Shown here piece by piece: positions 3,371-32,269 of a DNA stretch of 64,000 nucleotides (positions are counted from its first letter, which is position 1; each line of letters opens with the position of its first letter). The position numbers were made by a program, and so were the translations under genes. Below the pieces are notes generated by a model. The model worked only from the letters and a program-made list of their open reading frames with translations, was not told the DNA's origin and made no database searches. The stretch is from an uncultured Candidatus Rokubacteria bacterium (GTDB lineage: Bacteria; Methylomirabilota; Methylomirabilia; Rokubacteriales; CSP1-6): positions 47,110 to 111,109 of the forward strand of contig CAWIZN010000013.1 in assembly GCA_963840495.1 (NCBI GenBank). The letters run 5' to 3'.

Positions 3371-5320
<1,950 letters not shown>

Positions 5321-5324
<4 letters not shown>

Positions 5325-5635
5325 CGGACTCCGGCCGCTTCATCCCCGAGGCCGATGACGCCGACCTGCGGCGCGAGAAAGCGCGCGCCCGCGAGCTGCG
5401 GCAGAGCGCCTGGTGGAAGCGGCGCATCGCCGCAGGGATCTGCCACTATTGCCGCCGCGCCGTGGGAATCCGGGCATTGACGCTCGATCACGTCGTTCCC
5501 CTCATTCGCGGCGGCCGGTCCGTGCGGGGGAACATGGTCGCATCCTGCAAGGACTGCAACTCGAAGAAGCAATCGCTGCTGCCGTGGGAGTGGGACGCCT
5601 ACCTCACCGCGCGCGCGCCCTCCGAGGCCGACTGA
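5321..5635 (+). CDS. Small HNH endonuclease
   Basis: CHYC..LTLDHVVPLIRGGRSVRGNMVASCKDCNSKK; GTGA overlap with the ABC-F stop. Confidence 0.88.
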
Positions 5636-5816
5636 CGAAGCACCGGCTTGGCTGCTGACGAGCGCCCCATTCGCGGGCGCCGTCGTATCTTCGCGAATAC
5701 AGGGCACTGTCTCCAACTGTGGGCATTGTGCCGGGAGCGTCGGCGCGGTGAAATCGTCCTCATCGAAGCTCCAATCTCTCACGGAGGCTCCACTCTCACG
5801 AAGGAGGACGAGCGAC

Positions 5817-6158
5817 ATGCAGGCGATGCGATGGATCGGCATAGCGGTGTTGGGGGCAGGGTGTCTCTGTGGCGGCGCGGCGATGGCAGCAGAGGACAAG
5901 CCGACGAAGGCGAATCAGCGAGCGGAGGCCAAGGGCGAAGCGCCGGATGCCAAGGGTGATGTCAAGGTCAACATCAATGCCGCGTCGAAGGCGGATCTGA
6001 TGAAGCTCGACGGTATTGGCGCCGGGGCGGCGCAGAAGATCATCGCCTACCGCCAGGCCAATGGCCCGTTCAAGCGGCCGCAGGATCTCGCCAAGGTCGA
6101 CGGGCTGGCCGCCAAGGGCGTGGTCGAGAAGAATGCCGGCCGGATCACCGTGAAGTGA
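5817..6158 (+). CDS. comEA: ComEA-like helix-hairpin-helix DNA-binding protein with signal peptide
   Basis: VNINAASKADLMKLDGIGAGAAQKIIAYRQANGPFK; AAGGAGG RBS. Confidence 0.85.
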   Translation: MQAMRWIGIAVLGAGCLCGGAAMAAEDKPTKANQRAEAKGEAPDAKGDVKVNINAASKADLMKLDGIGAGAAQKIIAYRQANGPFKRPQDLAKVDGLAAKGVVEKNAGRITVK

Positions 6159-6170
6159 GAATCATCTTGC

Positions 6171-6199
6171 TTTGCTCAGCCGGATCTCTGTAGTAGCAT
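6171..6199 (+). promoter_or_regulatory. Putative sigma70 promoter for the downstream structured RNA
   Basis: TTGCTC (6172-6177), 16-nt spacer, TAGCAT (6194-6199); the first stem starts about 10 nt downstream. Confidence 0.5.
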
Positions 6200-6366
6200 G
6201 ATCGCAAATCGGTCAGAGCGCACACAGGCTCTCTGGGCGTTCTCTCCGGCAATTCCGCCGGAGACAACGTGACCGAGCCTCGGGTCGGGAGTCGGCGTCC
6301 GATCCAAGGTTGCGGGTTTCTGGGCCGCTTTTCGGGCCGCGCCGAGAAAGGGAGGTGATCCAGCCG

Positions 6367-6408
6367 ATGTGTACCCCTACGGTGAGCTGTGAGGTGGTCA
6401 CCTCCTAG
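6367..6408 (+). CDS. Possible 13-aa micro-ORF MCTPTVSCEVVTS
   Basis: Perfect SD GGAGGTGAT 7 nt upstream of the ATG; TAG at 6406-6408. Confidence 0.35.
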   Translation: MCTPTVSCEVVTS

Positions 6409-6458
6409 GCCCAGACACACGCAGTCGTAGGTGGCCCTGGAGGGTCCAGGAACCACCG

Positions 6459-6536
6459 GCCCCGACGGTCCCGCCCTTCTCACCAGCGGGGCGGCACGGC
6501 AGAAGCTGCCGCAGGCACCGTCGGGGCTATTTTTTT
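6459..6536 (+). terminator. Intrinsic terminator-like branched hairpin
   Basis: 11-bp GCCCCGACGGT/ACCGTCGGGGC closing stem with two internal hairpins, followed by TATTTTTTT. Confidence 0.7.
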
Positions 6537-6567
6537 GCCCGGCTGGCGGGGGTTCCCGCGATGCGGG

Positions 6568-6611
6568 AAAACAAAAACGCGCCGCCGAGGACGGATGTCC
6601 TCGCGGCGCGT
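6568..6611 (-). terminator. cspA intrinsic terminator
   Basis: ACGCGCCGC(C)GAGGAC/GTCCTCGCGGCGCGT stem with U-tract on the minus strand. Confidence 0.75.
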
Positions 6612-6685
6612 GACCGCTGGCACTCGAGCCGGTGTCAAGCCGGGTCCCGGCGGAACCGGGACCCGGCCGCTGATAGGTCGGCTGC

Positions 6686-6886
6686 CTACGCCTTGCGGAC
6701 GTTGGCGGCTTGGAGCCCCTTGGGCCCCTTGGTGACCTCGAACTCGACCCGGTCGCCCTCCGCCAGGCTCTTGAAGCCCTGAGCCTGGATGGCGCTGAAA
6801 TGCACGAACACGTCCTCGCCATTTTCCTGGGAAATGAAGCCGTACCCCTTCGCATCGTTGAACCACTTCACGCTGCCCTGAGCCAT
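6686..6886 (-). CDS. cspA: Cold-shock protein
   Basis: [13 protein letters not shown] (RNP1), VFVHFSAI (RNP2); AAAGAGGT RBS. Confidence 0.97.
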
Positions 6887-6969
6887 CTGTATCGACCTCT
6901 TTCTTTTGAGGCCTGCGCCTCAGTGATGCCCCGCCACCATGGCGGGGGCGTCCTTCGGGAGTGAAGGAC

Positions 6970-7007
6970 AAAGAAAAACGCCGCGGGACCTTGAGGTCCT
7001 CGCGGCG
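6970..7007 (-). terminator. Terminator-like hairpin within the cspA 5' leader (attenuator candidate)
   Basis: Minus strand CGCCGCGAGGACC-TCAA-GGTCCCGCGGCG then TTTTTCTTT. Confidence 0.6.
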
Positions 7008-7070
7008 ATGGTTTCGGATCGACGGTTTCCTTGCGTATTCAACGACTGTCGGCCCCCGCGGCCAGGGGGG

Positions 7071-7099
7071 AGTCTATGCGGGACTCCGGGCCGTGTCAA
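7071..7099 (-). promoter_or_regulatory. sigma70 promoter of cspA
   Basis: Minus strand TTGACA-N17-TAGACT. Confidence 0.75.

Positions 7100-32184: not shown

Positions 32185-32269
<85 letters not shown>

Follow-up and report, generated by a model that had tools for sequence, protein, structure and literature searches.

A small RNA with a long 16S rRNA complement and a 13-codon open reading frame in Candidatus Rokubacteria, a probable remote relative of Ms_IGR-5

Organization and transcription of the locus

The window analysed here is the whole stretch of 64,000 nucleotides from an uncultured Candidatus Rokubacteria bacterium. Between a ComEA-like gene and a convergent cspA gene it holds a conserved RNA, in which a very short open reading frame (ORF) follows a long complement of the 16S rRNA 3' tail. 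The features are listed below by their positions in the window.

5817-6158, + strand: ComEA-like helix-hairpin-helix protein, upstream neighbour (Pfam HHH_3, 70.8 bits; context)
6172-6199, + strand: putative promoter with a weak -35 element TTGCTC (6172-6177), a 16-nt spacer and a -10 element TAGCAT (6194-6199)
6206-6536, + strand: small RNA of about 330 nt, a conserved block present in RNA-library contigs and probably a remote Ms_IGR-5 relative
6206-6340, + strand: structured 5' domain, in which helices found by RNAalifold show compensatory changes, columns 27-28/95-96 and 65-70/77-82 among them
6345-6366, + strand: SD1, a probable extended Shine-Dalgarno (SD) site, complement of the 16S 3' tail with a 16-nt perfect core at 6351-6366
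6367-6408, + strand: small ORF of 13 codons plus stop, MCTPTVSCEVVTS, recognized by conservation of its open frame, start and stop
6374-6382, + strand: second block CCCCTACGG (codons 3-6), complementary to the 5' strand of helix 45 in a lineage-specific manner
6389-6398, + strand: SD2 box GUGAGGUGGU, internal SD-like sequence whose distance to the stop is fixed
6395-6406, + strand: mask strand UGGUCACCUCCU, last codons and first base of the stop, an anti-SD look-alike predicted to pair with SD1 at 6350-6362
6409-6459, + strand: conserved 3' domain, GGUGG...CCUGGGAGG..CCAGG.ACCACC hairpin region (alignment, RNAalifold)
6460-6536, + strand: branched terminator, stem 6460-6469/6517-6526 followed by a T-run at 6530-6536
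6686-6886, - strand: cold-shock protein CspA, convergent downstream neighbour (Pfam CSD, 105 bits; context)

The promoter is putative and was read from the sequence: a TAnnAT hexamer stands at the same position in the 20-locus alignment, and the consensus promoter scan was silent because the -35 element matches at only 3 of 6 positions. The terminator shows compensatory changes at columns 334-338/404-408 and aligns to the terminal hairpin of Rfam family RF02471. The 5' domain was found in Rokubacteria-type and some other non-actinobacterial homologues; it is absent from the actinobacterial forms and from families f7 and f11 of the organism's own class, whose RNAs all begin about 12-15 nt 5' of the SD. 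The fold z-score of the RNA of about 330 nt is −5.3. A closing helix GGUGCGC/GCGCACC is possible in representative folds and is only 40-76% paired in alignment A1, where column mapping is poor.

Contigs of four RNA libraries (metatranscriptomes) from four studies span 6206-6550. Two RNA-library contigs begin to fit at 6206, one of them with 23 A's before this position. Among the matches listed, 18 runs contain half or more of the sampled words, with 10 recorded as RNA and 12 studies represented, and the matching contigs come from soil, sediment and ice metatranscriptomes. Contig cover is nearly none over the ComEA gene (5651-6160) and over 6569-6670; it is probably inflated by rRNA contigs in the bin 6314-6364 and by other organisms in the cspA bins. 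A missing transcript was a possible objection to the RNA proposed in the preliminary description of this DNA, and the cover of the locus by RNA-library contigs removes it.

The 16S rRNA complement, the small ORF and the predicted fold

A direct read of the window gives AGAAAGGGAGGTGATCCAGCCGATGTGTACCCCTACGG for the plus strand at 6345-6382, as in the preliminary description. We compared it with the organism's own 16S gene, which lies on the same contig as the window (G000:C13:120643-122205) and has the 3' end ...GTAGCCGTAGGGGAACCTGCGGCTGGATCACCTCCTTTCT. Positions 6351-6366 are a Watson-Crick complement of the 16S tail at 16 of 16 positions, and 6374-6382 are complementary to the 5' strand and loop start of helix 45 at 9 of 9. 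The gap between these two blocks is 7 nt at the locus and 6 nt in the rRNA. Positions 6345-6350 are likewise complementary to the 16S terminal TTTCT, with one extra G, and the 16S likeness breaks off sharply at 6345 and 6382. The host's helix 45 and tail thus pair perfectly with both blocks, and a divergent host 16S is no objection to the pairing that was first proposed. We found GGAGGTGATCCAGCCG at two sites in the 4.83-Mb genome against 0.01 expected, which places the complementarity beyond chance; the site outside this locus is the 16S gene read in antisense. A search of the whole 4.83-Mb genome found no other locus with a 16S-tail complement of more than 14 nt. The duplex between the RNA and the last 15 nt of 16S is predicted at −22.5 kcal/mol.

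The SD block is retained across phyla at a length of 11-19 nt. Of the 67 loci found by BLAST, 66 have GGAGGTGRTCC unaltered and one carries an A>G change. The complementary run from GGAGG (G-U allowed) is 16-18 nt in family f1, 18 nt in f4, 18-19 nt in f8 and 11-16 nt in the actinobacterial type, and the extension of this first block past about 13 nt (AGCCG) is class-specific. This retention and the 16-nt perfect block bear out the earlier claim of a complementarity far longer than an ordinary SD. To our knowledge, it is among the longest natural SD complements.

We also asked whether long SDs are a general trait of this organism. They are not: a start codon within 13 nt was found at only 4 of the 15 GGAGGTGATCC sites, most of which fall in coding sequence.

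The preliminary description had noted a mismatched bubble between the two blocks that starts exactly at an AUG. The bubble is real, but it is merely AUG UGU A, the beginning of an ORF: the AUG, whose corrected position is 6367-6369, opens a conserved frame of 13 codons. In large pooled homologue sets, which were gathered with a pattern fixing the SD and TGTGAGGTGG and which include related, non-independent genomes, 164 of 167 unique homologues retain an ORF of 12-15 codons, and the start lies 1-7 nt (mostly 4-6) past the 11-nt SD in 164/167 unique sequences. The start codons are ATG (68), TTG (57) and GTG (39). In every ORF-bearing homologue the stop follows exactly 6 codons after UGU, as TAG (125), TAA (25) or TGA (14). 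Over the 15 nt that lead up to UGU, frame 0 has a stop in 0 of 119 unique sequences, against 57 in frame +1 and 38 in frame +2. Coding indels are of 3 or 6 nt, that is, in steps of 3, and the 1-nt indel is confined to the spacer.

We infer from this sequence evolution, and from ribosome profiling of distant actinobacterial homologues (see below), that the ORF is translated. The segment 6345-6382 is probably an unusually long ribosome-binding site followed by the first five and a third codons (through base 1 of codon 6) of a 13-codon gene, carried by an independently transcribed and abundant small RNA.

The second block needs to be considered separately. The preliminary description had both blocks pair with the two strands of helix 45, and proposed that the RNA could unzip this helix as a 30S decoy, a hibernation or assembly factor, or a modification-guide-like RNA. 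In the decoy or sponge form of this proposal, SD1 (with SD2) grips the 16S tail while AGCCG and CCCCTACGG invade helix 45 in the Rokubacteria family, and the RNA holds or inactivates small subunits or acts on 30S maturation or access to the KsgA site, the ORF being incidental. The 16 + 9 nt of perfect complement to the own 16S, the two SD-like boxes in each RNA and the cover by contigs in four RNA libraries would fit a decoy. On naked RNA, cofolding with a 50-nt 16S end makes the duplex that opens helix 45 favourable (ddG −20.9 kcal/mol); however, invasion of helix 45 in the folded 30S must break tertiary contacts that the energy model ignores. Within f1, a 9-nt run of block 2 (G-U allowed) is found in 35 of 46 loci, and its rare codon CCT (five neighbouring genes use it for 1 of their 58 Pro codons) points to constraint at the nucleotide level. 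Yet 6374-6375, which the 9-bp pairing requires, vary freely within f1, and the AGCCG extension is confined to the class. The block itself is lost in sister families and other phyla: its longest run is only 4-5 nt in 9/9 f4 and 8/8 f8 loci, and the 9-nt run is found in 0 of 91 actinobacterial-type loci despite the same kind of 16S end. Start, frame and stop position, which a pure decoy would not need, are strictly kept. We regard the decoy as unlikely. The helix 45 part of the earlier proposal is refuted by a condition that the proposal itself had set, the loss of CCCCTACGG in homologues, and the unzipping, decoy and guide roles are not supported, CCCCTACGG being ORF codons; the long SD part is retained. 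The match of block 2 to the helix 45 5' strand belongs in all likelihood to one family only and does not reflect a conserved contact with rRNA; within f1 it may be a lineage-specific contact.

SD2 is the most conserved element of the whole family. Its TGTGAGGTGG is identical in 67/67 BLAST-found loci and is capitalised in the RF02471 consensus, and the box (GUGAGGUGRU) is fixed three codons before the stop. The codons TGT, GAG and GTG are invariant in the same 67 loci, synonymous sites included; family f11 has GGT instead of TGT and retains GTGAGGTG.

These patterns bear on a further explanation, a plain micropeptide gene, in which the peptide of 12-15 residues is the effector and the RNA is its highly translated mRNA. 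The conserved open frame, the fixed length after Cys and the C-terminal residue pattern (...V-I-C-E-V-V-x-S here, ...W-T-C-E-V-A-A-R in Actinobacteria) agree with it, as do synonymous changes at some codons (GTC/GTT/GTG and CCT/CCG in the homologue alignment). However, the conserved half of the ORF is fixed as nucleotides, the N-terminal half is variable, and f11 has Gly for the Cys yet retains the RNA box. Conserved RNA also extends beyond the 42-nt ORF, over about 160 nt of structured sequence on its 5' side and about 125 nt on its 3' side. Comparison of homologous loci found no conserved partner gene or neighbouring enzyme, the cspA synteny having been seen only at Rokubacteria-type loci. 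A plain micropeptide gene is therefore improbable. Because SD2 is best conserved, the N-terminal codons are free and Cys changes to Gly in one family, the passage and position of the ribosome would appear to weigh more than the peptide.

In the predicted local minimum free energy structure, SD1 is masked in 18 of 20 representatives and unmasked in the other 2, and the predicted cost of opening it ranges from 4.6 to 14.7 kcal/mol over the 20. The mask helix has 93% of its cells paired, against 36-57% in slid registers, with 0 compensatory pairs. When covariation of the mask helix and the inner stem (6376-6382 with 6387-6394 in the predicted fold) was examined, no both-sided changes were found and shuffles scored equally, so the pairing may be a by-product of SD and coding constraints. 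In the wider alignment, RNAalifold favours a hairpin of SD2 with a CCUC strand, in which SD1 is left open.

It might also be explained that the RNA is an untranslated regulatory hairpin whose stem arms are the SD-like and anti-SD-like strands, and whose CCUCC-type strand, when exposed or released, seeds pairing in trans with the SDs of its mRNA targets in the manner of C-rich sRNA loops. A long hairpin is indeed predicted, one strand resembles the anti-SD, and the family was first reported as a non-coding sRNA, as its Rfam name tells. However, this is very unlikely in view of the open-frame statistics, the start codons spaced as expected for an SD and the use of all three stop codons at a single position. 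In addition, the 5' strand fits 16S better than it fits the opposite arm of the hairpin, where U6359 and 6363-6366 are left without a partner although they are complementary to 16S, and the CCUCC strand is absent from the actinobacterial and f7/f11 forms.

Distribution and relation to Ms_IGR-5

The conserved block was found in 39 of 41 relatives and, by BLAST, in 144 of 201 genomes of the phylum. The motif occurs once per genome in 136/201 phylum genomes, and the reversed pattern 0 times. The unpublished genomes G008, G022, G122 and G163 are counted in these three tallies; locus L014 (G022) is in the 20-locus alignment and the pooled counts, and L199 (G163) is in the pooled ORF counts, and no claim depends on these genomes alone. 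Beyond Actinobacteria, the RNA is present in Methylomirabilota/Rokubacteria, and single loci were found in records titled Thermodesulfobacteriota, Nitrospiria, Terriglobia, Binatia and others.

We searched for cspA around the homologous loci with tblastn. The synteny holds at most f1 loci, at one f5 locus and on Rokubacteria/Methylomirabilota-titled contigs. No convergent cspA was found among the actinobacterial or other-phylum 8-kb loci, and the fetched f4 and f8 pieces are too short to judge. A functional link to cspA was rejected, as the neighbour was seen only at Rokubacteria-type loci.

An artefact or relic (a chimeric rRNA or primer fragment, or a decayed minus-strand 16S 3' end), which the preliminary description had raised against itself and which the likeness of the minus strand to the last ~38 nt of 16S might suggest, has practically no probability and was ruled out by conservation and strand-specific features: most relatives carry a single, syntenic copy (one per genome in 136/201 phylum genomes), the 16S likeness stops abruptly outside 6345-6382, the ORF, promoter-like and terminator features all lie on the + strand, and the RNA is present in independent libraries.

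At the Rfam gathering thresholds, only a tRNA was found in the window, and the locus emerges only at relaxed thresholds: RF02471 (Ms_IGR-5) aligns over its full length (1-184 of 184) to 6341-6535 with 23.9 bits (E 0.002), against a gathering cut-off of 45. The preliminary description recognised no described family here, which is right insofar as the locus is below threshold for every Rfam family. Among 16 non-actinobacterial loci, 11 give a match of 21.9-41.3 bits at the corresponding place, each collinear over 1-184. At or above the cut-off are 16 of 18 actinobacterial motif loci (58-176 bits) and, within the organism's own class, 4 of the 5 searched genomes of f7/f11 (54-63 bits). The f7/f11 sequences are intermediate, with the actinobacterial-type W-T-C/G-E-V and without the 5' domain.

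Both RNAs have the same order of parts, namely an SD-rich 5' end, the ...GUGAGGUGG box, a structured middle and a CACC..CGGCCCC terminal hairpin. The bona fide members (58-176 bits) share a long SD, 12-13 codons and x-T-C-E-V-A-x-x-stop, and the ORFs end in C-E-V-x-x-x-stop; the ORF of the window follows this plan too, which is a membership trait that we propose here and is not part of the Rfam entry. The differences are that the window scores below the cut-off and its host is of the Rokubacteria/Methylomirabilota type, not an actinobacterium, that its RNA is longer by a structured 5' domain of about 160 nt, that its mask strand is a CCUCC anti-SD look-alike within the ORF, and that its SD complement is 16 nt or more rather than 11-14 nt. 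As part of the ribosome-binding-site reading, we think it likely that the RNA belongs to a remote, non-actinobacterial branch of the Ms_IGR-5 family.

Rfam names RF02471 'Actinobacteria sRNA', found in M. smegmatis. Ribosome footprints (protected reads) on Ms_IGR-5 homologues are reported for M. abscessus and M. smegmatis (PMC4974804), and transcription of homologues for Streptomyces (PMC8079986, PMC8780764). In the papers that we searched, Ms_IGR-5 is called a non-coding sRNA, or its ribosome footprints are noted and no more. In the searchable literature, we found no description of its small ORF, peptide motifs or function.

A possible mechanism and its meaning

If 6345-6382 is a ribosome-binding site, the 16-nt block would be maximal SD pairing with the single-stranded 16S 3' tail and would start translation. 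In the free RNA, the SD would be closed in a predicted helix of about 12 bp by the last codons and stop of the ORF, the anti-SD look-alike (...GGUCACCUCCU), and the extra length of the SD would pay for opening this mask helix. The net predicted gain on binding the 15-nt 16S tail is about −11 kcal/mol, which would be like that of an ordinary unstructured SD. The second block of 9 nt would be coding sequence and one strand of the inner stem, and translation might switch the RNA between a closed and an open fold.

Very long SDs are thought to slow the departure of the ribosome from the start site, which would fit a ribosome-holding role as well as a ribosome-binding site. We tentatively consider a doubtful further step, in which the RNA is a ribosome-sensing or ribosome-holding device in several phyla. 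SD1, pairing with as much as the entire 16S tail, would capture the 30S at the start, SD2 would engage a ribosome paused near the stop, and occupancy would flip the closed and open folds; the Rokubacteria family may add a contact with helix 45. Lying three codons before the stop, SD2 would come within reach of the anti-SD when a ribosome pauses on the last sense codon or on the stop codon, and 12-15 codons would leave barely enough room for two ribosomes in tandem, one terminating and the other initiating.

Several known systems resemble parts of this RNA. In an S. aureus 70S initiation complex, the SD pairing extends on the start-codon side of GGAGG into the ...GAU... of the 16S tail by two extra base pairs, which help to place the start codon (PMC13009471). 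The likeness is the pairing past GGAGG toward the start codon; the complement here, taken from sequence alone, is 16 nt (up to 18-19 nt with G-U in sister families) and would reach into the lower helix 45 stem.

Dual-function sRNAs and trans-acting leader-peptide RNAs, such as RNAIII, SgrS, SR1 and rnTrpL/peTrpL, are likewise independently transcribed and structured, with a promoter-like site and terminator of their own and a very short ORF; here the ORF is shorter than most, and its conserved part is constrained as RNA. In RNA thermometers and translational operators, hairpins mask the SD. The SD here is also predicted to be sequestered in cis by an anti-SD-like strand, but the mask is the 3' end of the same tiny ORF, there is no downstream gene under control, and covariation lends the helix no support. 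Internal SD-like sequences engage the elongating or terminating ribosome, as at the RF2 frameshift site. The strong SD-like box in this ORF (GAGGUGRU) lies similarly at a fixed short distance before the stop, but no frameshift product or second frame was seen, and the role of SD2 is suggested by its conservation and spacing.

Ms_IGR-5 has been listed as an actinobacterial sRNA, and is now extended well beyond Actinobacteria as a family whose core is a 12-15-codon ORF and whose second SD-like box keeps a fixed place relative to the stop codon. It is a housekeeping-looking RNA that can be tested directly in laboratory actinomycetes. It is also a natural example in which to ask over what length the SD and anti-SD can pair on the ribosome, and what a self-masked 'super-SD' does. 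If the device described above were real, an abundant sRNA would report or buffer free translation capacity, or would park ribosomes.

The 16S-complementary site and its transcript

The site at window positions 6345-6382 on the forward strand (AGAAAGGGAGGTGATCCAGCCGATGTGTACCCCTACGG) is real and unusual. It consists of a maximal Shine-Dalgarno (SD) site and the first codons of a tiny conserved open reading frame (sORF) within an expressed small RNA. The decoy that unzips helix 45 of 16S rRNA, as proposed in the preliminary description, was not borne out. The features of the locus and window are as follows.

3585-5324, forward: ABC-F type ATPase (domains ABC_tran, ABC_tran_Xtn, ABC_tran_CTD)
5276-5635, forward: small HNH endonuclease-domain protein, its ORF overlapping the ATPase end by about 50 nt
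5817-6158, forward: ComEA-like helix-hairpin-helix gene, upstream neighbour of the small RNA
6194-6199, forward: putative -10 element TAGCAT (TAnnAT kept in relatives)
6367-6408, forward: sORF coding MCTPTVSCEVVTS, then stop
6460-6536, forward: terminator-like long branched stem, then seven T's; 3' end of the small RNA
6686-6886, reverse: cold-shock gene (cspA), convergent, downstream of the small RNA
32185-32266, forward: tRNA (50.2 bits), the sole gathering-threshold Rfam match of the window

The 16S gene of the source organism, located about 67 kb from the site on this contig (G000:C13:120643-122205), has the 3' end ...GTAGCCGTAGGGGAACCTGCGGCTGGATCACCTCCTTTCT. Its tail is perfectly complementary to 6351-6366 (16/16 nt), and the 5' strand of helix 45 with the loop start is perfectly complementary to 6374-6382 (9/9 nt), which confirms the claimed complementarity; the E. 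coli numbering first given to the paired 16S positions presumably applies. Positions 6345-6350 also complement the final rRNA bases apart from one extra G. The mismatched bubble is real as well, and it begins at an AUG because this is the start codon of the sORF. This complementarity is beyond chance. The 16-mer was observed twice in the 4.83-Mb genome (70% G+C) against 0.01 expected, the second site being that 16S gene read in antisense, and the runner-up matches to the antisense tail were 14 nt long and had no GGAGG core. Paired GGAGGTGATCC sites elsewhere in the genome (C12:30251 and C12:33498; C48:2340 and C54:1345) have identical 30-nt contexts, look repeated or duplicated, and are not followed by start codons.

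The intergenic block 6190-6540 folds far more stably than its shuffles (z = -5.3). Its conservation across the phylum as a single copy, which the preliminary description had left to be checked, was found in 144/201 sampled genomes and in 39/41 relatives; the tallies in this analysis take in the unpublished genomes G008, G022, G122 and G163, and no claim depends on these four alone. A consensus promoter scan did not call the site at 6194-6199, and the -35 element is weak. Eighteen public sequencing runs from 12 studies were listed with at least half of the sampled words, and 10 of them were recorded as RNA. Contigs from four of the RNA runs, each from a different study (freshwater sediment, ice and two soils), all span 6206-6550, and in two of the four the fit starts exactly at 6206, preceded in one by 23 A's. 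A transcript start at 6206, 7 nt past the -10 element, agrees with this fit, which is only a weak hint because transcript ends and strand are not provable from contigs.

Several observations concern the neighbouring genes. In run X7, an RNA-library contig joins 5648 to 6150 through 9 other letters and bypasses the ComEA-like gene, so some related organism apparently does not have this gene upstream of the small RNA. A promoter-like TTGACA-17-TAGACT for cspA at 7099-7071 (within 6887-7099, reverse) would give a 5' leader some 180 nt long. The cspA leader of one relative (L059) matches the Rfam cspA thermoregulator below threshold (34.6 bits vs 78), and tandem cspA genes, in two or three copies, lie downstream of the small RNA in many relatives of family f1.

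Conservation of the long SD and of the second block

We compared homologous loci by family (f-labels). The motif GGAGGTGRTCC was found in 66/67 BLAST-found loci, the sole exception being A>G. Two positions vary, R and the Y of CCAGYCG, both by transitions that retain G-U pairing with the rRNA.

Complementarity runs measured from GGAGG, G-U pairs allowed
f1: 16-18 nt
f4: 18 nt
f8: 18-19 nt
other non-actinobacterial loci: 12-19 nt
actinobacterial type: 11-14 nt in 89/91 loci, 16 nt in 2

Copies in f7 complement the whole 16S tail perfectly over 18 nt, and so do those in f11, with one substitution just upstream. Since these runs are kept across groups, at 11-19 nt, the conserved feature is the long SD, and the statement that the site is far longer than an ordinary SD holds. 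Extension past about 13 nt is lineage-dependent, though the rRNA end does not vary. In the accessible part of an S. aureus cryo-EM study (PMC13009471), the SD helix is extended on the start-codon side by two extra pairs, whereas the complement in the window is 16 nt. The literature searched, in the portions accessible, offered no precedent for an SD helix of 16 nt or more.

The claimed complementarity to both strands of helix 45 is perfect in the organism's own 16S, but the second block is largely confined to f1. Its 9-nt run was found in 35/46 f1 loci and the single f3 locus, in 0/91 actinobacterial-type loci, and the longest run was only 4-5 nt in 9/9 f4 and 8/8 f8 loci. Positions 6374-6375, required for the 9-bp pairing, vary freely within f1, where codon 3 is ACC, ACT, AAC, AGC, AGA, AAA, TCC or ATA. 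CCUACGG is held in f1 although CCT is a rare Pro codon (1/58 in five neighbouring genes). The inner stem predicted between 6376-6382 and the invariant 6387-6394 would fit this pattern at least as well as rRNA contact.

Relation to Ms_IGR-5 and the tiny ORF

Nothing was found at the small-RNA locus at Rfam gathering thresholds. The Rfam scan suggested in the preliminary description did yield a sub-threshold match in a relaxed search, in which 6341-6535 matched the whole model of RF02471 (Ms_IGR-5, 'Actinobacteria sRNA') with 23.9 bits (E 0.002; cut-off 45). Among the other non-actinobacterial homologues, 11/16 match it at full length (21.9-41.3 bits), and 16/18 motif-found actinobacterial loci are bona fide members (58-176 bits). 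Families f7 and f11, from the source organism's own class, were missed by the pattern and, save for a single weak match in f11, by BLAST. Their copies score above the RF02471 cut-off (54-63 bits) in 4/5 genomes searched, and their sequences (f7, L202/L204; f11, L203/L205) are intermediate in form. Because of these homologue scores, actinobacterial members, f7/f11 copies and intermediate sequences, the link to Ms_IGR-5 is real, and the small RNA is a new non-actinobacterial branch of that family. Copies in f7/f11 are short: they have no 5' domain and start ACACAAGAAAGGAGG..., as the actinobacterial consensus does. This domain, about 160 nt long, was thus seemingly added in the Rokubacteria-type branch and in a few other phyla (L070, L130, L147).

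A pattern scan with one genome per species (GGAGGTGRTCC, a gap of 15-45 nt, then TGTGAGGTGG) yielded at least 120 loci. Many of the matches listed are from Actinomycetota (Mycobacterium, Streptomyces, Kitasatospora, Pseudonocardia, Brachybacterium and others) and Rokuibacteriota/Methylomirabilota; single loci among them belong, by record title, to Thermodesulfobacteriota, Nitrospiria, Terriglobia, Binatia, Desulfuromonadales and 'Deltaproteobacteria'. Three of the 120 listed are probable chance matches. One locus from the window's phylum (f13, G155:C397:3521-3563) carries a mycobacterial-type sORF, ...ATAGACTTATGGACTTGTGAGGTGG (R-I-D-L-W-T-C-E-V), not the Rokubacteria type; this could reflect bin contamination (the bin is 85% complete) or horizontal transfer.

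We pooled 198 motif-bearing loci (167 unique sequences), the pattern-scan part being the matches listed. An ORF of 12-15 codons was present in 164/167, and the other three are the chance matches. It starts 1-7 nt, mostly 4-6, past the 11-nt SD with ATG (68), GTG (39) or TTG (57), and stops precisely six codons past UGU in 164/164 with TAG (125), TAA (25) or TGA (14). Within the 15 nt before UGU in 119 unique sequences, from genomes that are related and not independent, 0 sequences had a stop in frame, and 57 and 38 had one in the other two frames; this test is fair because the pooling pattern prescribes the SD and the TGTGAGGTGG box and leaves the frame free. Length differences within the ORF are multiples of a codon (3 or 6 nt), a 1-nt indel being confined to the spacer, and synonymous variation occurs among Val (GTC/GTT/GTG) and Pro (CCT/CCG) codons. 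Ribosome-protected reads on Ms_IGR-5 homologues are described for M. abscessus and M. smegmatis in the accessible part of one paper (PMC4974804), and transcription of the RNA in Streptomyces in those of two others (PMC8079986, PMC8780764). We conclude that the sORF is probably translated in the source organism. In the literature accessible to search, no description of the sORF or of the RNA's function was found.

Possible alternative folds and a proposed role of ribosome passage

The local minimum-energy fold of the window sequence and of 18/20 representatives closes the SD (6350-6362) with the final codons and stop of the sORF (6395-6406, UGGUCACCUCCU). The predicted cost of freeing the 11-nt SD is 4.6-14.7 kcal/mol. 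U6359 and 6363-6366 are complementary to 16S yet unpaired in this hairpin, so the 5' strand matches the rRNA better than its own partner.

Predicted energies (kcal/mol)
hairpin in the local fold: -29.4
duplex with the terminal 15 nt of 16S: -22.5
net gain once refolding is counted: -10.8
GGAGG or AGGAGGU alone, as a reference: -8.7 to -10.7
net gain with a naked 16S end of 50 nt, helix 45 invaded, folded ribosome ignored: -20.9

In the mask helix 93% of cells are paired, and in the whole tested structure 82%, against 36-57% for slid registers; there were 0 compensatory changes, and shuffles did equally well. RNAalifold on the wide alignment preferred a local hairpin in which the CCUC strand pairs with a second SD-like box. 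The masking fold thus has no covariation and a competing hairpin, and two alternative folds, with the SD masked or free, are plausible but unproven. Compensatory changes back the 5' domain and terminator helices (31/66 predicted pairs). The loop ..CUCACCA.. of the terminator-proximal hairpin (6477-6487) is near-invariant in non-actinobacterial homologues; its partner in a possible loop-loop contact or pseudoknot could be GGUGAG/GGUGAU (6381-6386) or GUGAG of the second box.

The N-terminal half of the sORF varies by lineage (MCTPT, MSTTP, MSGSQP, MDISM, MEILT; MIDLW in mycobacteria). The conserved half is fixed as nucleotides, TGTGAGGTGG being identical in 67/67 BLAST-found loci, synonymous sites included. 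In f11, GGT (Gly) replaces the TGT (Cys) of other families and GTGAGGTG is kept. The second SD-like box (6389-6398) contains GAGGUGRU, which is complementary to 8 nt of the 16S tail. From the spacing, a ribosome at the last sORF codons could pair with it through its anti-SD. We consider a ribosome-sensing or ribosome-holding role of the small RNA unlikely. The second box always stands three codons before the stop. From these features of the sORF taken together, we infer that the passage and position of the ribosome outweigh the peptide.
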